64,000 nucleotides of DNA from Candidatus Gastranaerophilales bacterium (GTDB lineage: Bacteria > Cyanobacteriota > Vampirovibrionia > Gastranaerophilales > Gastranaerophilaceae). Positions 7,858 to 63,850 of the stretch are shown in pieces (the stretch's first letter is position 1; every line of letters begins with the position of its first letter). The stretch is taken from positions 122,306 to 186,305 of the forward strand of contig CANQOQ010000002.1 of NCBI GenBank assembly GCA_947625495.1, written 5' to 3'. The translations under genes were made by a program, and so were the position numbers. The notes under the pieces were generated by a model. It saw only the letters and a program-made list of their open reading frames with translations, was not told the DNA's origin and ran no database searches.

Positions 7858-8377
7858 TATATGTAATTTGTTTATTACCGTATACTTTGGCTTTGATTAA
7901 TTCAAAGCCATTGTTGTTTATGGATTTATCAACAGGGTGTTCCAGTATTACAATTCCGCCTTGATTTAATATGTTATTTTTTTTGATTATATCAAGCGAC
8001 TGTTCATAAAGGTCAGAGTCATAAGGCGGGTCTATAAATATTACATCTGCCTTAGTGCTTATTTTTAATATGTTTTTTAGTGAATCTCCAAAATATAAAT
8101 TTGGAGTAAGCTTTAAATTTTTATAATTTTCCTTAATTGCAAGTGCTGTTTTTCTGTCTTTTTCAAAACATATAACATTAAATCCCCTCGATAGAGCCTC
8201 CAAACCCATTATTCCGCTTCCCGAGAACATATCTATAAAGGTTTTGCCGTTAAAATCCATCATTGAAGAAAGCGTGTTAAAAATTCCCTGACGGGTTTTT
8301 GATAATGTGGGCTTAATATTATCAAAATCAGGTGTTTGAATCTTTCTTGAATTATATATTCCGCCAGTTATCTGCAT
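7841..8377 (-). CDS. rsmD: 16S rRNA (guanine966-N2)-methyltransferase
   Basis: ITGGIYNSRKIQTP...TRQGIFN, DMFSGSGIMGLEALSRG and FIDPPY motifs. Confidence 0.85.
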   Translation of the reverse strand: MQITGGIYNSRKIQTPDFDNIKPTLSKTRQGIFNTLSSMMDFNGKTFIDMFSGSGIMGLEALSRGFNVICFEKDRKTALAIKENYKNLKLTPNLYFGDSLKNILKISTKADVIFIDPPYDSDLYEQSLDIIKKNNILNQGGIVILEHPVDKSINNNGFELIKAKVYGNKQITYISSLE

Positions 8378-8379
8378 AA

Positions 8380-8907
8380 TTATAATTCTATAAGGTTATT
8401 GGGATTATTTTGACTGCTGTTTGGACTGTATGTCTTAACACTTCCTACGATGTTTACTTGATTTGTCAATAAATTTTGCGAGTAATGAGGCATTTTGTTT
8501 TGATATATAACAAGAATTACACCTTCTTTACCTTGAAATGCACGCTCAATAGCGCATGTGGTTTTACTCTCGCTGCACCAGTATACCATAGCGTCATCCA
8601 TATCCTGCTTAATATAACGGGGCATAATATCTAAATAATTATTTTTGTCTTTACCAAGCTGTTTTTGAAGTATTGCCATAGGGCTTAAAGCCTTATTTTG
8701 GAGTACTCTCTCAGAAAAAATAAACATTTCCGTATAATTTTCACTGCTTTGATTATAAGGGACATAGCATTTCTTTGATTGTACTTTATCGGGACTGTCT
8801 ACTTTATGCCAGCCTTCATTCGGAAAATTAAACTCTAATACGTCTTTTGCAAAAACTAAATTTTGAATAAGTAATAAACTTAAAATAACCAATAATAATT
8901 TTTTCAT
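8380..8907 (-). CDS. secreted hypothetical protein
   Basis: Signal peptide MKKLLLVILSLLLIQNLVFA. ATG at 8907 overlaps the NIF3 stop codon. Confidence 0.6.
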   Translation of the reverse strand: MKKLLLVILSLLLIQNLVFAKDVLEFNFPNEGWHKVDSPDKVQSKKCYVPYNQSSENYTEMFIFSERVLQNKALSPMAILQKQLGKDKNNYLDIMPRYIKQDMDDAMVYWCSESKTTCAIERAFQGKEGVILVIYQNKMPHYSQNLLTNQVNIVGSVKTYSPNSSQNNPNNLIEL

Positions 8908-16735: not shown

Positions 16736-17248
16736 AACTTGAGCTCTGGTGCAGTGGCACCTTAAAAGTTTGGTTTAACTTATTTTGAACCGGCTCTGCC
16801 GGTGCCCTGCGAAATTCCGCTGTCTTGGATTTTGCTTCATTTCTGCCCTGTCATTCGCCGTGCTTCGCACCTGCTCATTTCGGGCATTCATTACTTCGAG
16901 CTTCGCTCTACGCAAAATCCGCTGTCTTGAAATTCCTTTTCGCTCAAGCTTGTCACTCCTACGGTTTTGCCTGTCGTCGTTTAAGCTTTCGCATAACGGA
17001 TTTCATCCGTACGGAATTTCGCTTCTTGGAATTGCTGTTCGCACAACCCCTGCAACCTCGCTTTAAAAACCTTTGGTTTTTCCGCTCGGTCGGGTTGTTG
17101 CTCCCTCGGGCTCGCTCGCTTTGCTCGGCTTTGCCCTGCGCAATTCCGCTGTCTTGAAATTCCTTTTCGCTCAAGCTTGTCACTCCTAAGGCTTTGCCTG
17201 TCGTCGTTTCAGCTTTCGCATAACGGATTTCATCCGTACGGAATTTCG
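16736..17248 (-). ncRNA. candidate structured non-coding RNA or 3' UTR element downstream of dnaK (unknown family)
   Basis: G+C jumps to about 50% (32/60 counted for 16801-16860). The plus strand is about two-thirds pyrimidine. Many short GNRA/GAA-loop hairpins, internal repeats, no credible ORF. Bounded by the dnaK stop codon and a terminator. Confidence 0.3.
16911..17023. repeat. direct repeat copy A (113 nt)
   Basis: Matches 17139-17250 with about five differences. Contains the acggat-ttc-atccgt hairpin and terminal inverted 11-mers. Confidence 0.9.
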
Positions 17249-35992: not shown

Positions 35993-38020
35993 ATGGCAGA
36001 TTCTGTAAATAATAACGGCATAGATAACGCTTATAAATATAATAATCCCGAAATATCCAAATATGATACAGATAATGACGGAAAAATTTCCGTATTTGAA
36101 GTTGAGCAAATAACTGATGAAAATTCTAAGTCGGAATTGGCTGTTTTGCTTGAAAATGATATGACCGAACAGTATAGTGAAGAAATAACCGAAGAAAAAA
36201 TACAATCACTTGAAAGCAAATTATCGGAGGCAAAAAATAAACAAGGTGTAGTAGGTTCACTTTGGAACGGAATAAAAAATATAACCGGACTCGGTTCAAG
36301 TACAAATAAGTGCGAACAAGCTATCGAGGATTATAAAAACGGAAAAATCAGCTACGATGAAGCAGAAAGTATAATTTCGGGCTTTGACTCCAAACAGGAA
36401 AGTTCTGTAAATCTTGCAGCAAATATATTAACAGGTGTAGCGGCGACTTTAGTAGTTGGTTCTGCGGTATTAACAGGCGGACTGTCACTGGGTGTAATAG
36501 CAGGTGCAGCTGCAGTCGGAGCAGGAACAAAGGCTGGACTTAAATTTTTAGACAGAGCCACAAATAAAGTAGAAGGTGATGCTGCAGATGCCAAACAAAT
36601 AGCTAAAGATTCACTATCAGGTGCCGTGGATGGTGCGGTTTCCGTTGCAACAATGGGAATGGGAACTACTGCTGTTACTGCAAAGACCGCGGTTCAACAA
36701 ACACTAAAAGAAACCGTAAAACAAGGAATAATTTCAGGTGCTAAAGCAGGTGCCGTTTCAGGTGCCGTAACAGGTGCAAGTGACTATACCATTGAAGCCG
36801 TTTTAGAAGAAGATGTTGAATTTAATGCTCAAGATTTAGCTAAAAGTACATTAATGAATGCGGCAGGCGGTGCTATAGCAGGTGGTGCCATGGGCGGAAT
36901 TTCTTCCGGCATTCAATATAAAAAAGCCTTTAAAATAGCTAATGAATTGAAAGATCAAACAAATAAAATGCATGAAACCTATTCATCATATATTGATGAA
37001 GCTCAAGAGCAGATATCAAATGAGTTTTCCGAGCTTACAAGTGTTAAAAATGAAAATATTACCGCAAGAGTTAAAAGTAAAAATTCGGTTTTAAGTAAAT
37101 TGGCAAAAAAATATGATAGCGGCGAACTCAAATCTACGTCAATGGAAGATTGTATAGATGCAATAGGAGATGCATACGGAACAAGAATTCAGATGGAAAA
37201 TCTCCGGCCGAATGAAGCAAAAGAAATTATTGAAGATTGTTTATACGGTTATAATATCACATACGAACAGTTTATAAAGTATATGAATGGTGATACTTCT
37301 ACTCTTGATGATGCTGGTATTAATACTATTAATGAAATAAAAGATACCGTTATTGATTTACTAAAAGAACGCCAATCGCAGGAAGTTGTTGATCAGCTTA
37401 TTGATGCGATAGGTAACGGCAGAATGACTATTACCGAATTAAACAATTACGGTGATAATATTTCTTCTTATTTTACCGCAAAACAATTGCAGGAAATAGC
37501 TGATGCGTACTACATTGCAACAGGAAATAAACTTGAACTCGTTTCATTAGATAATTTCCATAATGCTTCAGGGTCAAAAGTTACCATAGATGATAGTTTT
37601 GATTATACAATAAATTTAGATACAAAAGGTGCAGTAAAAGATTCAGGATATGCGTCATCTCAAATGAATGTTAAACACAAATTCGCTGACGGTACAATAG
37701 GTAACGGCGAACTTCAAATCCGTGGTACCGAAGTAAATAAATTTGCTGATGTGGAGCATATTCCCTATGATATAAAAACAGGTAAGATTAAAGCTTCTGA
37801 TGAAACTTATTCTGATATTTATAAAATTATAGAAAAAATGTCTGATAAAACTTATACAAAATATAATGAATTCCTTACTAAAACATATCAATATTTAAGG
37901 CTAAAAGAGCTTGGGATTGAAACTGCTCCTCCTGTATTTAGTGATAAATCACTTTCTGAAGAAGCACTCAGATTATTAAGCCCCGAAGGTTTATTGGAAA
38001 TAAGTGCAAGAAAACACTGA
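35993..38020 (+). CDS. polymorphic-toxin-like protein: EF-hand loop, Gly/Ala-rich glycine-zipper region, C-terminal RelA/SpoT-like (RSH/toxSAS-like) domain
   Basis: DTDNDGKISVFE (aa 25-36). Gly/Ala-rich helices at aa ~140-310. RVKSKNSVLSKL (359), DAYGTRI (393), GYASSQ (552) and ELQIRGTEVNKFADVEHIPYD (573) occur in the canonical RSH synthetase order. No signal peptide. Confidence 0.7.
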   Translation: MADSVNNNGIDNAYKYNNPEISKYDTDNDGKISVFEVEQITDENSKSELAVLLENDMTEQYSEEITEEKIQSLESKLSEAKNKQGVVGSLWNGIKNITGLGSSTNKCEQAIEDYKNGKISYDEAESIISGFDSKQESSVNLAANILTGVAATLVVGSAVLTGGLSLGVIAGAAAVGAGTKAGLKFLDRATNKVEGDAADAKQIAKDSLSGAVDGAVSVATMGMGTTAVTAKTAVQQTLKETVKQGIISGAKAGAVSGAVTGASDYTIEAVLEEDVEFNAQDLAKSTLMNAAGGAIAGGAMGGISSGIQYKKAFKIANELKDQTNKMHETYSSYIDEAQEQISNEFSELTSVKNENITARVKSKNSVLSKLAKKYDSGELKSTSMEDCIDAIGDAYGTRIQMENLRPNEAKEIIEDCLYGYNITYEQFIKYMNGDTSTLDDAGINTINEIKDTVIDLLKERQSQEVVDQLIDAIGNGRMTITELNNYGDNISSYFTAKQLQEIADAYYIATGNKLELVSLDNFHNASGSKVTIDDSFDYTINLDTKGAVKDSGYASSQMNVKHKFADGTIGNGELQIRGTEVNKFADVEHIPYDIKTGKIKASDETYSDIYKIIEKMSDKTYTKYNEFLTKTYQYLRLKELGIETAPPVFSDKSLSEEALRLLSPEGLLEISARKH

Positions 38021-59293: not shown

Positions 59294-59768
59294 ATAATGT
59301 AATAATAATGAATATTTTTACAATTATTTACATACAGCTAAAATCATGTTCAAATCATGGTTTTAGCGGTTTTAAACTTTGCGAAAAGAGCTGATTTTAT
59401 TGATAAAGGATTGAAGAACTCAAAAAAAGATTTATACTGAAAATATAACAAACTTTAAAAAAAGACTATTGATAAATGGATGAGAATATACATTCCGTTG
59501 CTAACATAATAATGAAAAAAATATCAGGAAAGGAGAAAATAAATGGGAACTTGGGATGAGTCTGAACATCCACGTGATGACGAAGGGAAATTTACATATA
59601 AAAATGGAGGTAGTGATAGTGTTAAATCCGATGAAGAAAAAATGCAAAGACGAGCAGACCTTCTATATCCGTCAATGAAAGATAAAGAACCCAAAACAGA
59701 TTATTCAACTGTCGGACTTGAAAATTACAAAAAAGAAAAAGATTCTGTTACCGGCGGAGCTGCAAATA
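59294..59768 (+). repeat. 475-bp module copy 1 (249-bp leader plus the first 75 codons of the muramidase gene)
   Basis: Aligns colinearly with 61207-61680 with one indel and about a dozen substitutions by hand alignment. Confidence 0.9.
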
Positions 59769-60244
59769 CGGAAGATTGGCAAAAAGATAAGGATTTTAAT
59801 AAAATTTTAGAATATTTATATCCGCAAGAAGGAGGATATAGTAATAGAAAAGCAGATTTAGGCGGACCTACAAAACTTGGGGTTACTCAGACTACTTATG
59901 ACTGGTATAATAAACGTAATAAAATTCCGACTCAGAATGTGAAAAATATAACTAAAGGGGAAGCAACAAAAATATATTATGATTATTTTTGGAAAGAATC
60001 TGGTGCTAGTTCAATTAAAGATAAGGGTATGGCATTGATGTATTTTGATGCTGCCGTTAATCATGGTCCATATTATGCAAAAAAATATTATAAAGAATCA
60101 AATGGCAATTATAATAAGTTTGTTGAACTACGGAAACAACATTATGAGCGTATGAAAAATAATATACCTCAACAAAAAGAAAATTATAATGGTTGGATTA
60201 ACAGATTAAATAATATAGATAAATATATAGAAAAGAATTATTAA
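59543..60244 (+). CDS. GH108-like N-acetylmuramidase with conserved 75-aa N-terminal module (effector candidate 1)
   Basis: YPQEGGYSNRKADLGGPTKLGVTQ (GH108 EGGY catalytic motif). C-terminal YFD..VN.G / GW.NRL segment is PG_binding_3-like. RBS aggaaaggag. No signal peptide. Confidence 0.8.
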   Translation: MGTWDESEHPRDDEGKFTYKNGGSDSVKSDEEKMQRRADLLYPSMKDKEPKTDYSTVGLENYKKEKDSVTGGAANTEDWQKDKDFNKILEYLYPQEGGYSNRKADLGGPTKLGVTQTTYDWYNKRNKIPTQNVKNITKGEATKIYYDYFWKESGASSIKDKGMALMYFDAAVNHGPYYAKKYYKESNGNYNKFVELRKQHYERMKNNIPQQKENYNGWINRLNNIDKYIEKNY

Positions 60245-60251
60245 ATATAAA

Positions 60252-60671
60252 TTATTTGTTTATTTCACTTAAATATTTTCGGATAGTAATTAGTTTTTCT
60301 AAATATTGTTTTGAATTTTGGCATTTTATACTTGAACTTACTAAATATGGTTCTGCATAGTTCTGATTTTCAAATAAATTTTTTAATAATAAATTATTAT
60401 TTTTAATATATGTTTCCCAACTTAAATTAGACTCTGATAATAATTTATATTTATCCTTAGTAAGTATTTTTTTTAAAAGTTTTAATTCTTTATTGATTTC
60501 TTTATTGTATAAATTAATTGCTTGATAATTACATTCAGCCATATAAAAATCTGACTGATTGTTTGTATTTAGACAATTAAGTCTGGTTCTTTCTATATCA
60601 TCTGTTATATTAGCAAAAGAACAATTATTTGTTAATATCAAAATTATAAATACAATAAAAAACTTTTTCAT
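60252..60671 (-). CDS. secreted DUF1311/LprI-like protein (candidate muramidase immunity 1)
   Basis: Signal peptide MKKFFIVFIILILTNNCSFA. C..T......MAEC......Y.KEIN.....L......LL.ES...W..Y......C pattern of PF07007. ATG at 60671 preferred. Confidence 0.65.
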   Translation of the reverse strand: MKKFFIVFIILILTNNCSFANITDDIERTRLNCLNTNNQSDFYMAECNYQAINLYNKEINKELKLLKKILTKDKYKLLSESNLSWETYIKNNNLLLKNLFENQNYAEPYLVSSSIKCQNSKQYLEKLITIRKYLSEINK

Positions 60672-60769
60672 AAAAATAATTATAATAATTAGTATGTATA
60701 AAGACAATAGTAAATAAGTTAGGTTTAACTTCATCTAGAAAATATTAAACATTCAACAAGAAAACGTAA

Positions 60770-61138
60770 TTAAAATTCAAAAACAGGTTTTCTAAATTTA
60801 CGTTTTTCGTACCATCTAGCAAAGCGAAGTTTATTTTTGTAATCGTAAATATACTGTACTTTTTTATCTTTTAAACAAGAATACACTCCGCCTTTATTTT
60901 TAAAAAGAGCATAACTCCAATAATAGTGTTTAATAATTTTGAAGCAATTATTTTCATAAGCAAATTTTTTAACATAGTCAGGACTATCAGAAGCATCTAT
61001 TCTATCTAAAACATAATATTTATAGGCTTCATCTCCACTCATTTCTTCAAGCTCGGCAAGGGCTTTATTTGAAGACGAAGGAAAACAATTCAGTATAGAA
61101 ACCAAAATTACAGATAAAATGATAAAAAACTTTTTCAT
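60770..61138 (-). CDS. secreted/lipoprotein-like hypothetical protein
   Basis: Signal peptide MKKFFIILSVILVSILNC. Shares an upstream promoter module with the 62230-62769 gene. Confidence 0.55.
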   Translation of the reverse strand: MKKFFIILSVILVSILNCFPSSSNKALAELEEMSGDEAYKYYVLDRIDASDSPDYVKKFAYENNCFKIIKHYYWSYALFKNKGGVYSCLKDKKVQYIYDYKNKLRFARWYEKRKFRKPVFEF

Positions 61139-61210
61139 AGTAATAATTATAATAGTTCAAGTATAAAAAAACAATAGACAACAGCTTGTAGTTTTAATAC
61201 AACATAATAA
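61139..61210. repeat. conserved upstream (promoter) module of minus-strand island genes, copy 1
   Basis: aaaaaaacaatagaca[ag]cagcttgtagttttaatacaacataataa is repeated at 62796-62841 with one mismatch. The proximal part is more diverged. Confidence 0.8.
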
Positions 61211-61680
61211 TGTAATAATAATGAATATTTTTACAATCATTTACATACAGCTGAAATCATGTTCAAATCATGGTTTTAGCGGTTTTAAACTTTGCGAAAA
61301 GAGCTGATTTTATTGATAAAGGATTGAAGAACTCAAAAAAAGATTTATACTGAAAATATAATAAACTTTATAAAAAGACTATTGATAAAGGGATGTGAAT
61401 ATACATTGCGTTACTAACATAATAATGAAAAAATATCAGGAAAGGAGAAAATAAATGGGAACATGGGATGAGTCTGAGCATCCACGTGATGAAAATGGAA
61501 AATTTACATACAAAAACGGAGGTAGTGATAGTGTTAAATCCGAAGAAGAAAAAATGCAAAGACGAGCAGACCTTCTATATCCGTCAATGAAAGATAAAGA
61601 ACCAAAAACAGATTATTCAACTGTCGGACTTGAAAATTACAAAAAAGAAAAAGATTTTGTTACCGGCGGAGCTGCAAATA
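61207..61680 (+). repeat. 475-bp module copy 2
   Basis: See 59294-59768. Confidence 0.9.
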
Positions 61681-62201
61681 TTCAAATGGATAATGAAGAA
61701 TATATAAAAAATTTAAAAAATTTAGCTCAAACTGATTCGGATTTAAGATTTTTAAACAGTTTAGATTATATTTTAAAAGAAGAAGGAGGATATAATAATT
61801 ATAAAGGAGATAAACCAACAAATTTAGGAGTAACTCAAGATATTTATAATATATATAGAAAAGAAAAAGGTTTACCTTCCCAAGATGTGAAAAAAATTAA
61901 TATAAAAGAAGCAACTCAAATTTATCATAAATATTTTTGGAAACCATCTAAAGCAGATAAACTTCAACATCCTTTAGATTTAGTTTATTTTGATATGTAT
62001 ATTAATAGTAATCCTAGGGAAGCGAAAAATGTATTAAATCGTTCTGATAACGATGTTTATAAATTTATAGAAAATCGTAGAAAATTTTATGATGATGTTA
62101 TTAAGTCAAAACCAATAAAGGAAAAATTTAGAAAAGGCTGGTATAATCGACTTGATAATTTAAAAAAATATATTGATGAGTACTATGCGAGTATAAAATA
62201 A
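61455..62201 (+). CDS. GH108-like N-acetylmuramidase with the same N-terminal module and a diverged catalytic domain (effector candidate 2)
   Basis: First 75 aa are 71/75 identical to the 59543 gene. Then LKEEGGYNNYKGDKPTNLGVTQ, FWKPS, VYFD and GWYNRLDNLKKYI. Confidence 0.8.
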   Translation: MGTWDESEHPRDENGKFTYKNGGSDSVKSEEEKMQRRADLLYPSMKDKEPKTDYSTVGLENYKKEKDFVTGGAANIQMDNEEYIKNLKNLAQTDSDLRFLNSLDYILKEEGGYNNYKGDKPTNLGVTQDIYNIYRKEKGLPSQDVKKINIKEATQIYHKYFWKPSKADKLQHPLDLVYFDMYINSNPREAKNVLNRSDNDVYKFIENRRKFYDDVIKSKPIKEKFRKGWYNRLDNLKKYIDEYYASIK

Positions 62202-62215
62202 TTAAAGAATAAATT

Positions 62216-62245
62216 ACCTGATAACTCTATTATGAATTATCAGGT
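62216..62245. terminator. 9-bp inverted repeat spanning the convergent gene ends
   Basis: acctgataa (62216-62224) / ttatcaggt (62237-62245), 12-nt loop. It overlaps the stop codon of the minus-strand gene. Confidence 0.4.
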
Positions 62246-62769
62246 ATTCTGTCCGTATGAATTTTATAAACCCATTTTAAAAATTCTGCACGGTTTTTAA
62301 TTAATTCTTCATAATCACTTGCTGCTATATCAAAATACATTGTGCCTCCGTGATTAAAAATAAATTCATTAATAATATCATTATCTTTTTTACTTTGTTG
62401 TAACCATAGATTTTGACTGTCTTTAATGAGTTTATATTGTTCTTTTGTTGTTGATTGCTCCAATAATTTTATATATTTGTCTATTTCTTTTTCCCATTCT
62501 TTTGTTGCGTAATATATGCAATTTCTTGAATCTGCTGCATTATCAGTTTTATATATACAGCTTTGTTCGTTTATATCAATAGGATTGTCGAAATTTGTGA
62601 GTTTGTTATTTAATTCATTAATCAGTTTAACTTCTGCCTTTAATTTTTTATTTTCTGCTATTAAATTTGTATATTTTTTATCATCAATTGATTTTTTAAC
62701 AAAAAAACCTAGAGCAAAAGATGATAATAATAACAATAATGAAATTAATACAATAATAAGCTTTTTCAT
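62230..62769 (-). CDS. secreted DUF1311/LprI-like protein (candidate muramidase immunity 2)
   Basis: Signal/anchor MKKLIIVLISLLLLLSSFALGFF. C....(11)..C.....KEWEKEIDKY...L........L..SQ..W......GGTM......RAEFL fits PF07007 well. Confidence 0.75.
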   Translation of the reverse strand: MKKLIIVLISLLLLLSSFALGFFVKKSIDDKKYTNLIAENKKLKAEVKLINELNNKLTNFDNPIDINEQSCIYKTDNAADSRNCIYYATKEWEKEIDKYIKLLEQSTTKEQYKLIKDSQNLWLQQSKKDNDIINEFIFNHGGTMYFDIAASDYEELIKNRAEFLKWVYKIHTDRIPDNS

Positions 62770-62841
62770 AAGATAATTATAGTAATTCAATTTTAAAAAA
62801 ACAATAGACAGCAGCTTGTAGTTTTAATACAACATAATAAT
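62770..62841. repeat. conserved upstream (promoter) module, copy 2
   Basis: See 61139-61210. Confidence 0.8.
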
Positions 62842-62936: not shown

Positions 62937-63233
62937 TTGTCAATTATTGTGCCATTGCCATACGTAATACAATTTTATTCATTTAACGAAGTTGATATAA
63001 AAGATAATATACTTGAGATGTTTTTGCAATTAAGCATACCTACAATTATTGCAGCAATAATAAAAATAATGATTGAATTTCAAAAAGATGAAAATAAAAT
63101 AAAAAAATTAAATATTGTCAGGAAAATACTCAATATAATATCAGCAATTTATTTATTACTTTATGAACTCTTTCTTATATTTGTAATTATTGTAGTAAAG
63201 AGTATGGGGAATGCAGGTCCTTGGCAGAATTAA
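62937..63233 (+). CDS. possible small two-TM membrane protein
   Basis: TTG start directly after TGtTATAAT (62925-62933), with an alternative ATG at 63018. Two hydrophobic helices. Weak coding evidence. Confidence 0.3.
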   Translation: MSIIVPLPYVIQFYSFNEVDIKDNILEMFLQLSIPTIIAAIIKIMIEFQKDENKIKKLNIVRKILNIISAIYLLLYELFLIFVIIVVKSMGNAGPWQN

Positions 63234-63334: not shown

Positions 63335-63850
63335 TCACTTTATATCTTTTTCATATTTGCATAAAGCACTATAATATATTTCTCCATTAACAAACCCTGA
63401 ATAATCGGGACAAACTCCATAATCATTTATTTTGTCAGTCAATAATTTACCGTTTCTATCGTATTGTTTTATATGTATAAGACATAAAACATTTACATTA
63501 CAGTACGCTTCATATTTTATTAATTCATAATTTACCGAAACACCATCAACATCATATAAGGGATTTTCGACTGAATTAAATATTTTAAACCAACCCAGTA
63601 TTGAATACTTATTTTTAGTTATGGATTTTTTATCCAAATAAATATCTTTTGTTAATTGTAACCATTTCTCATCATTAGAAAGTTTGTAATTTGTTTCTGC
63701 TAAATGATTTATTTTGTCTTGTAAATATTTTCTTTCTGCATTCCAATCACTAATTTTCTCATCATCAACCGACTTTTTTACAAAAAAACCTAAAGTAAAA
63801 GACGATAATAATAACAATAATGATATTAATACAATAATAAGTTTTTTCAT
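63335..63850 (-). CDS. secreted protein, possibly Adhesin_E-like beta domain
   Basis: The N-terminal 30 aa are nearly identical to those of the 62230-62769 gene. C-terminal GWFKI....Y.....Y.C.....(L)......Y...GK........C pattern recalls surface-adhesin protein E-like domains (from memory). Confidence 0.5.
   Translation of the reverse strand: MKKLIIVLISLLLLLSSFTLGFFVKKSVDDEKISDWNAERKYLQDKINHLAETNYKLSNDEKWLQLTKDIYLDKKSITKNKYSILGWFKIFNSVENPLYDVDGVSVNYELIKYEAYCNVNVLCLIHIKQYDRNGKLLTDKINDYGVCPDYSGFVNGEIYYSALCKYEKDIK

Follow-up and report, generated by a model that had tools for sequence, protein, structure and literature searches.

The 64,000-nucleotide (nt) stretch of Candidatus Gastranaerophilales DNA treated here, called the window, is C2:122306-186305 (contig C2) of assembly G000, which has 1.88 Mb in 51 contigs. 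Toward its end lie two plus-strand open reading frames (ORFs), 59543-60244 (233 aa) and 61455-62201 (248 aa), in which a GH108 muramidase domain follows a common 75-residue N-terminal module, N75. The initial annotation, made from the letters of the window, had said that both muramidases open with the same hydrophilic 75 residues and that these lack a hydrophobic signal, lipobox or twin-arginine motif. Both statements held up: residues 1-75 are identical at 71 of 75 positions, and the module is hydrophilic along its whole length and has neither a hydrophobic stretch nor a lipobox or twin-arginine (RR) motif. The remainder of the two proteins is ~37% identical, and a 95%-identical head on ~37%-identical bodies is not a product of chance. 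That two muramidases carry the module was true of the window and too narrow for the genome, which has four tandem N75 genes with two cargo folds, GH108 and GH24; whole-assembly search placed copies 3 and 4 just beyond the window (C2:187111 and C2:188488). The module contains three short motifs, and it and its upstream leader are laid out as follows.

59294-59542, plus strand: leader of ~249 nt with ribosome-binding site AGGAGAAAATAAATG, also present upstream of copies 2 and 3 (DNA alignment of the four copies)
59543-59767, plus strand: N75 copy 1, a signal-less, hydrophilic tag predicted to be disordered (sequence, AlphaFold2)
59552-59611, plus strand: motif 1 (HPRD), residues 4-23, WDESEHPRDDEGKFTYKNGG, which recurs internally in phage polyvalent proteins
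59648-59683, plus strand: motif 2, residues 36-47, RRADLLYPSMKD, which resembles the tail REDILFPTM-stop of a phage-type head-assembly protein
59747-59767, plus strand: motif 3, residues 69-75, VTGGAAN, the cargo junction, where identity between the copies collapses
61207-61454, plus strand: leader of copy 2 (DNA alignment)
61455-61679, plus strand: N75 copy 2, with its motifs at 61464-61523, 61560-61595 and 61659-61679

When the DNA of the four copies was aligned, the common block was found to consist of the leader and the N75 codons and to end directly after VTGGAAN. G000 has no HPRD protein outside this island. Copy 4 is a pseudogene, with a truncated lysozyme domain and a ~110-nt, GC-richer repeat within its HPRD codons (C2:188377-188488; L005:7480-7590). 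The same repeat occurs in G000 at C19:7023-7132 (90% identity), C2:107613-107672, C2:139126-139213 (window 16821-16908) and on C26, and may be a small mobile or repetitive extragenic palindrome (REP)-like element.

Residues 1-75 matched nothing in Pfam (E up to 1), NCBIfam or PHROGs, save for one weak 16-residue PHROG match; a profile search of the PDB with the tag gave no relative, and tblastn of the tag against 50,697 deposited phage genomes gave no match. In an AlphaFold2 model of copy 1, built on a shallow alignment of 5 sequences, residues 1-75 have a predicted local distance difference test (pLDDT) score below 50, with one helix at 30-41, and the module is accordingly predicted to be disordered. 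The initial annotation had considered that N75 might turn out to be a structural part of the GH108 fold. That fold begins near residue 78 of the model, and the low pLDDT over residues 1-75, together with the fusion of the module to unrelated folds described below, shows that N75 is not part of it. Across an alignment of 24 modules, E6, H9, P10, R11, D12, G15 and F17 are invariant, and the motif 1 consensus is W-D-E-x-x-HPRD-x-x-GKF. The core of motif 2 is RRADLLYPSM or RADLLYPSM, in relatives often doubled as REDILYPTMK. VTGGAAN may be a processing site. The only other motif 3 occurrences in G000 are two [FV]TGGA[AS] motifs in a Gly/Ser-rich protein of 278 codons (C1:105896, plus strand), which may be related to the glycine-rich effector front end of the window gene 35993-38020.

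The genes that follow the two modules in the window are listed next.

59768-60244, plus strand: GH108 muramidase cargo of copy 1 (PF05838 at residues 91-175, E 7e-22; folded in the AlphaFold2 model)
60252-60734, minus strand: convergent gene for an exported protein with a readable signal peptide, weakly LprI/DUF1311-like (PF07007 E 4e-3, under the curated cut-off), immunity candidate for copy 1
60770-61138, minus strand: 122-aa exported protein, immunity candidate, of a family found beside these effectors in 9 other loci (cluster 3)
61680-62201, plus strand: GH108 muramidase cargo of copy 2, diverged from that of copy 1 (PF05838 at residues 104-185, E 3e-18)
62230-62790, minus strand: convergent gene, immunity candidate for copy 2, for a protein of LprI/DUF1311 lysozyme-inhibitor type (PF07007 E 5e-9, over the curated cut-off) that has a membrane anchor or signal at its N-terminus
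62937-63233, plus strand: 98-aa protein with two transmembrane segments, of a family that has 6 members, spread over 4 other effector islands (cluster 9)
63335-63850, minus strand: 171-aa exported or anchored protein, orphan immunity candidate, of a family found in 11 effector islands (cluster 2), with a paralogue just past the window

Copies 3 and 4 have GH24 phage-type lysozyme domains in place of GH108. Behind every N75 copy stand small convergent genes for exported or membrane-anchored proteins, of families that recur in relatives, and these proteins are candidate immunity proteins. The 98-aa protein is more likely a component of the island, perhaps immunity or holin-like, than a chance ORF. 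In relatives N75 heads M23, Lipase_3, Gln_amidase (a papain-fold glutamine deamidase), DUF6973 and zincin domains and a frequent domain of unknown fold, and the C-terminal regions of 126 proteins with N-terminal HPRD fell into at least 16 clusters. The initial annotation had held that the idea of a tag would fail if the module had no homologues on other cargo; the GH24 domains here and the domains in relatives are such homologues. Since one front end stands on many cargo folds and exported proteins follow each gene, the locus reads as a polymorphic effector/immunity array whose cargo is mostly envelope-acting.

The cargo domain met most often in the family (motifs NFHNAxG...DTYDFNK...IPYF) is found at C12:25873-26880 and in many relatives (e.g., L007, L011 and L076). 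Its AlphaFold2 model has pLDDT above 90 from about residue 140, and comparison with the PDB gave no significant match, the best being pectocin M2 (E 0.12, TM-score 0.14-0.17). Multi-transmembrane proteins are usually encoded next after this domain, so the domain may represent a new toxin fold that acts on the membrane or envelope. A GH108 endolysin or TtsA-type holin-dependent muramidase was considered for the window genes and rejected: the model for holin-associated muramidases, NF040573, scored 33 bits against a cut-off of 240, and the same tag is found on non-muramidases.

The initial annotation had linked HPRD-like motifs to phage polyvalent and MuF-type proteins, and the link proved correct. 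An exhaustive search of 1.84 billion representative proteins gave 173 matches to the HPRD module. About 56 were short proteins with the module at residue 1, and ~94 were long proteins (450-5313 aa) in which the 22-residue motif alone occurs 2-16 times internally, at intervals of 150-400 residues; those long proteins that were sampled carry Zeta toxin, XkdF-type protease (S78_2), MuF, GNAT and 2'-5' RNA ligase domains. In the viral database IMG/VR, 457 stretches match the HPRD pattern. Among 60 viral ORFs with HPRD that were scanned, the head-type domains were portal (5), DUF2213 (4), S78_2 (2) and MuF (1), and the effector-type domains were ADP-ribosyltransferase (ART; 9), Zeta toxin (3), PBECR1, LPD3, Acb1, RelA/SpoT and Gln_amidase. 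A prophage of one relative has the domain order DUF2213, HPRD, PBECR3. Judged by domain content, HPRD sits in proteins that join capsid-interior anchor domains to effector domains. Literature searches under spellings of the motif found no paper that describes it, and a term search of the polyvalent-protein paper (PMC5512222) found no mention of it.

The full module is much narrower in distribution. In a scan of one genome per prokaryotic species it was found almost only in metagenome-assembled genomes of Candidatus Gastranaerophilales from animal guts, often at 3-6 copies per genome. Within the order it is patchy, being present in 15 of the 201 genomes and in 5 of the 49 genera.

A tblastn search of G000 with the large terminase subunit (TerL) and portal proteins from the effector loci of relatives found a podovirus-like gene cluster on another contig. 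The cluster, G000:C12:12359-28928, minus strand, is 16.6 kb long and lies between rlmH and an aspartate kinase gene; its genes were identified by searches of PHROGs, Pfam and the PDB. The head and packaging genes encode a small terminase subunit-like protein, TerL, portal, a 197-aa head-assembly protein (phrog_458) and a major capsid protein (PF20911, E 3e-113) whose relatives are epsilon15 gp7 (3j40) and the BPP-1 capsid protein (3j4u). The other genes encode a Bbp16-like protein, tail tubular proteins of the T7 gp11/gp12 type, a gp13-like protein, an internal virion protein, a tail fibre and a GH24 lysozyme. The head-assembly gene (C12:22556-23149) lies between the portal and capsid genes, and the gene order is that of the epsilon15-like Escherichia coli phage phiV10. 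Only head, tail, terminase and lysozyme genes were found in the 16.6 kb, with none for replication, integration or lysogeny. Of the 201 genomes of the order, 30 have an intact portal gene, among them 10 of 10 of this genus (77-87% identity), and the cluster occupies the same site, flanked by rlmH, in at least four genomes of the genus. The intact portal and the conserved site suggest that the cluster has been kept by vertical descent and possibly domesticated. It may encode a podovirus-type particle resembling a gene transfer agent (GTA), known here from its genes alone; a literature search for a Gastranaerophilales particle found nothing relevant.

Three lines of evidence tie the tag to this cluster. 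The first is a common peptide. The head-assembly protein of G000 ends in KENREDILFPTM-stop (tail REDILFPTM), and a strict motif 2 pattern is confined, genome-wide, to the four N75 genes and this C-terminus; chance would give 0.05 occurrences. Such tails were found in the head-assembly proteins of all 28 relatives and of five isolated Proteobacteria phages (phiV10, Tyrion, Carin1, Jess A and BUCT711), with endings such as TPAQILYGKND, ADILYGSK, EDILYPSMNENE, AAEVLYGK and AEIMYPDLK, and in four of the five phages, all but Carin1, VTG, VTGG or VTP precedes the tail (VTG(G) in phiV10, Tyrion and BUCT711). On these alignments the tail is ancient. In genus g1, where REDILFPTM-stop is the tail, the tags have RADLLYPSM or REDILYPTM, and 7 of 8 tag motifs belong to the LYP[ST]M type; in genus g22, where TPAQILYG is the tail, the tags have PAEILYG, PAQILYS or PADILYG, and none of 23 belongs to that type. 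Across 17 further genomes the PxM type made up 17 of 28 motif instances in one group and 0 of 13 in the other. By these comparisons, motif 2 of the tag tracks the genus-specific variant of the head-assembly tail.

The second line is gene position. We clustered 714 ORFs around 78 loci, and TerL was found directly upstream of the effector/immunity island in L063, L064, L065, L077 and L078, and L078 has the portal gene next after the island. The slot between TerL and portal ancestrally held one 66-aa gene and in g1 and g22 has been enlarged with effector/immunity cassettes. In G000 it encodes a 335-aa protein that combines the unknown cargo domain with a disordered N-terminus and the degenerate motif RAKTLFNYP; a multi-transmembrane protein is encoded next. 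Two relatives have a stand-alone GH108 gene without N75 in the slot, before the 66-aa gene, at 8274-8762 of the reversed sequence of L124 (G154:C1:128627-142273, reverse strand) and at 2471-2947 of L126 (G159:C11). This suggests that muramidase cassettes move between the cluster and chromosomal islands. The third line is co-occurrence. The portal gene was present in all 10 sampled genomes with N-terminal-HPRD effectors (Fisher 1.3e-9), and the head-assembly gene in 19 of 20 further effector genomes. A search for a regulatory element common to the 249-nt leader and the capsid cluster gave AT-rich chance matches only.

The initial annotation had offered export, vesicle loading and particle packaging as routes for the module. 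Particle packaging is favoured over the other two by the podovirus-like cluster, the common tail motif and the cassettes inside the cluster in relatives; of the export machinery, a type VI secretion system (T6SS), a contractile sheath and a C39 peptidase were absent, within the limits given below. We therefore think it probable, with appreciable doubt, that N75 is a capsid-loading tag, i.e., a modular address label for an epsilon15-like podovirus particle whose genes lie elsewhere in the genome.

Precedents exist for parts of such a route. The C-terminal part of the HK97 protease reportedly docks inside the procapsid. The P22 scaffold is likewise docked by its C-terminal part (10.1101/2022.12.13.520362), and podovirus ejection proteins act in the periplasm (PMC8402733). 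N-terminal capsid-targeting peptides that carry foreign cargo are known from T4 IPIII (PMC9026906) and P1 DarB (PMC9024508). By analogy, the head-assembly protein here would be docked inside the procapsid via its C-terminal tail, and the tag would use the same docking site, so that effectors would be co-assembled into procapsids. HPRD might serve in docking, in portal threading or in processing. VTGGAA, a possible processing site, is missing from the head-assembly tail of G000 itself. Particles would be released by lysis, the cluster ending in a GH24 lysozyme gene. When a particle adsorbed to a neighbouring cell, its internal proteins would be ejected into the periplasm, where the muramidases, M23 peptidases and lipases would act, and kin would be protected by their periplasmic immunity proteins.

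Several observations weigh against this interpretation. RefSeq and PHROGs label the head-assembly protein 'protease', and neither Pfam nor the PDB has a match for it; the name scaffold comes from gene position alone, and particle production by the cluster is a prediction from gene content. In the genomes with REDILFPTM tails, 11 of 28 motif instances have the short ILY core only. The order of the motifs also differs, as ILY precedes VTGG in the tag and VTG precedes LY in the phage tails. The effector in the TerL-portal slot of G000 lacks HPRD, and the island in the window is not beside the cluster, being on another contig among housekeeping genes. Two genomes with weaker HPRD matches, G172 and G208 (the latter with L119), lack the cluster. 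Finally, covariation and co-occurrence both come from about two clades, one g1-like and one g22-like, and the Fisher values therefore make the cases look more independent than they are.

A different role for the same packaging tag would make the N75 proteins the particle's own entry lysins, used in phage- or GTA-like delivery of DNA, with the 'immunity' proteins acting in superinfection exclusion. When ten cluster proteins were scanned against PHROGs and Pfam, no lytic transglycosylase of the T7 gp16 type was named, while gp13- and gp14-like proteins are present; both terminase subunits, small and large, are retained; and periplasmic action of podovirus ejection proteins is established (PMC8402733). 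One lysin is enough for DNA entry, yet there are up to 4-6 paralogous cassettes per genome, and lipases, a deamidase and an unknown fold are among the cargo. Moreover, an exported protein for each cassette and junctions that look recombinational are the signature of polymorphic toxins. Given the multiplicity of the cassettes and the diversity of the cargo, weapons are the better reading, and entry lysins seem unlikely.

The disordered N-terminus with short linear motifs predicted for N75 would also suit bacteriocins of the pesticin/colicin M kind, released by lysis, in which N75 would be an unstructured translocation domain that binds the import machinery of the target, its likeness to the phage tail being a remnant of its origin. 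The cargo would act in the periplasm, the immunity candidates are periplasmic, and no secretion apparatus is nearby; pesticin itself is a T4-lysozyme-type bacteriocin with a periplasmic immunity protein. The N75 proteins, however, are only 230-250 aa long and have no receptor-binding domain. Bacteriocins would leave unexplained why motif 2 tracks the genus-specific head-assembly tail, why cassettes lie between terminase and portal genes, and why HPRD is found inside portal and protease fusions. We regard this explanation as improbable.

Export by a non-phage machine has its own pointers. VTGGAA, and ELGLMTGGAS in relatives, resemble the ends of double-glycine leaders and might be cut at TGG|AA by a C39 ATP-binding cassette (ABC) exporter; the other candidates are a T6SS, an extracellular contractile injection system and a type IV pilus/type II secretion system-like operon. 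Two genomes have an operon of the PilQ-PilB-PilC type with an HPRD effector just downstream of it (L081:1-7047 and L085:1-6177). The operon of this type in G000, C12:798-6240, is near the contig end, and the podovirus-like cluster is ~6 kb away. Neither a Sec nor a prepilin signal is present in the N75 proteins, and terminase is the only apparatus gene that recurs among the 714 neighbouring ORFs of the 78 loci; two homologues whose contexts were inspected had housekeeping neighbours only. The C39 exporter was rejected on the absence of Peptidase_C39 (PF03412) from G000 and 8 of 10 effector-bearing genomes, and T6SS and contractile particles on the absence of TssC (PF05943) from all of 40 genomes and of phage-type sheath (PF04984) from all of 11 HPRD-match genomes. 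Secretion of this kind is thus very improbable. Least credible is the view that N75 has no trafficking role and is either a 5' homology block of promoter, leader and 75 codons, kept by gene conversion for cassette swapping, or an inhibitory propeptide: near-perfect DNA identity that includes the 249-nt non-coding leader and ends at a sharp breakpoint would fit a homology block, but the three peptide motifs are conserved across genera whose DNA and linkers have diverged (24-56% identity to the query across the alignment), and HPRD is conserved across phyla, which argues for selection on the peptide itself.

Beyond the reading of N75 as a capsid-loading tag, we propose, tentatively and as rather less likely than that reading, that Gastranaerophilales have retained an epsilon15-like podovirus particle, inherited vertically, for use as a protein-injection weapon, that loading of chromosomal toxins follows a two-part code made up of the tail copy and HPRD, and that HPRD is a pan-phage label for capsid-internal, ejected proteins. 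If true, an uncultured gut lineage related to cyanobacteria could attack the walls of its neighbours by means of a retained podovirus-like particle, and a pan-phage HPRD label would explain how, in many phyla, effectors of the polyvalent and MuF types reach the capsid. Outside T4 and P1, little is known of the way in which phage-borne toxins and polyvalent effectors enter capsids, and the locus offers a concrete candidate code, i.e., a 22-residue motif found in hundreds of phage proteins and a peptide that appears to copy a head-assembly tail. If the tag is portable, it might be used to load chosen enzymes into phage-like particles.

Among known systems, the T6SS pairs Tse/Tsi, Tae/Tai and Tge/Tgi resemble the N75 cassettes in joining signal-less muramidases, peptidases and lipases with periplasmic immunity proteins, which are candidates in the case of N75, and some immunity proteins of T6SS hydrolases are of the DUF1311/LprI type; no T6SS or sheath gene, however, was found in the effector genomes tested. 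The closest analogue in mode would be the cargo-loading peptides of encapsulins, terminal peptides that dock cargo inside a shell of HK97 fold. An encapsulin lacks portal, terminase and tail and does not pass its cargo on to another cell, whereas the shell here belongs to a tailed-phage gene set. The capsid-targeting sequence (CTS) of T4 and P1 is likewise a short N-terminal peptide that sends unrelated cargo into the procapsid for delivery to the next cell, and it is portable to foreign cargo. The T4 type is a propeptide with affinity for the prohead core, and N75 agrees with it in position and logic. There is no sequence similarity between the T4 CTS and N75; the former has 10 residues and is removed by the gp21 protease, and N75 has 75 residues and three motifs. 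Further, the T4 cargo genes are in a lytic phage genome, whereas N75 genes are chromosomal multi-copy toxin/immunity cassettes.

Polyvalent proteins (Iyer et al. 2017, PMC5512222) are like N75 proteins in carrying the motif W-D-E-x-x-HPRD-x-x-G-[KRQ]-F and in having PBECR, ART-PolyVal and Zeta toxin effectors; they differ in having 2-15 domains per chain on a phage or conjugative element, where N75 proteins have one cargo domain and are chromosomal. MuF polymorphic toxins (Zhang et al. 2012, PMC3482391; PMC12226406) also combine a variable C-terminal toxin with an adjacent immunity gene, of which the N75 loci have candidates, and are presumed to be delivered from the head, and their location in the head-gene region holds for relatives here. 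N75 proteins lack MuF (PF04233), however, and have a disordered 75-residue tag instead of a folded anchor of ~300 residues; their cargo is envelope-degrading enzymes with periplasmic immunity candidates, and the particle would be epsilon15-like. Two features of polymorphic toxins are found at the locus, one tag with interchangeable C-terminal domains in at least 16 clusters, and identity that collapses after VTGGAAN with a 249-nt leader common to the copies, a sign of cassette exchange. The defining feature of the MuF, polyvalent, T6SS-effector and double-glycine families was looked for in each case and is lacking, so the N75 proteins belong to none of the four. In sum, what appears to be new is the composite tag, its apparent mimicry of and covariation with the head-assembly tail, the chromosomal arrays putatively served by a replication-less epsilon15-like cluster, and the lineage in which they are found.

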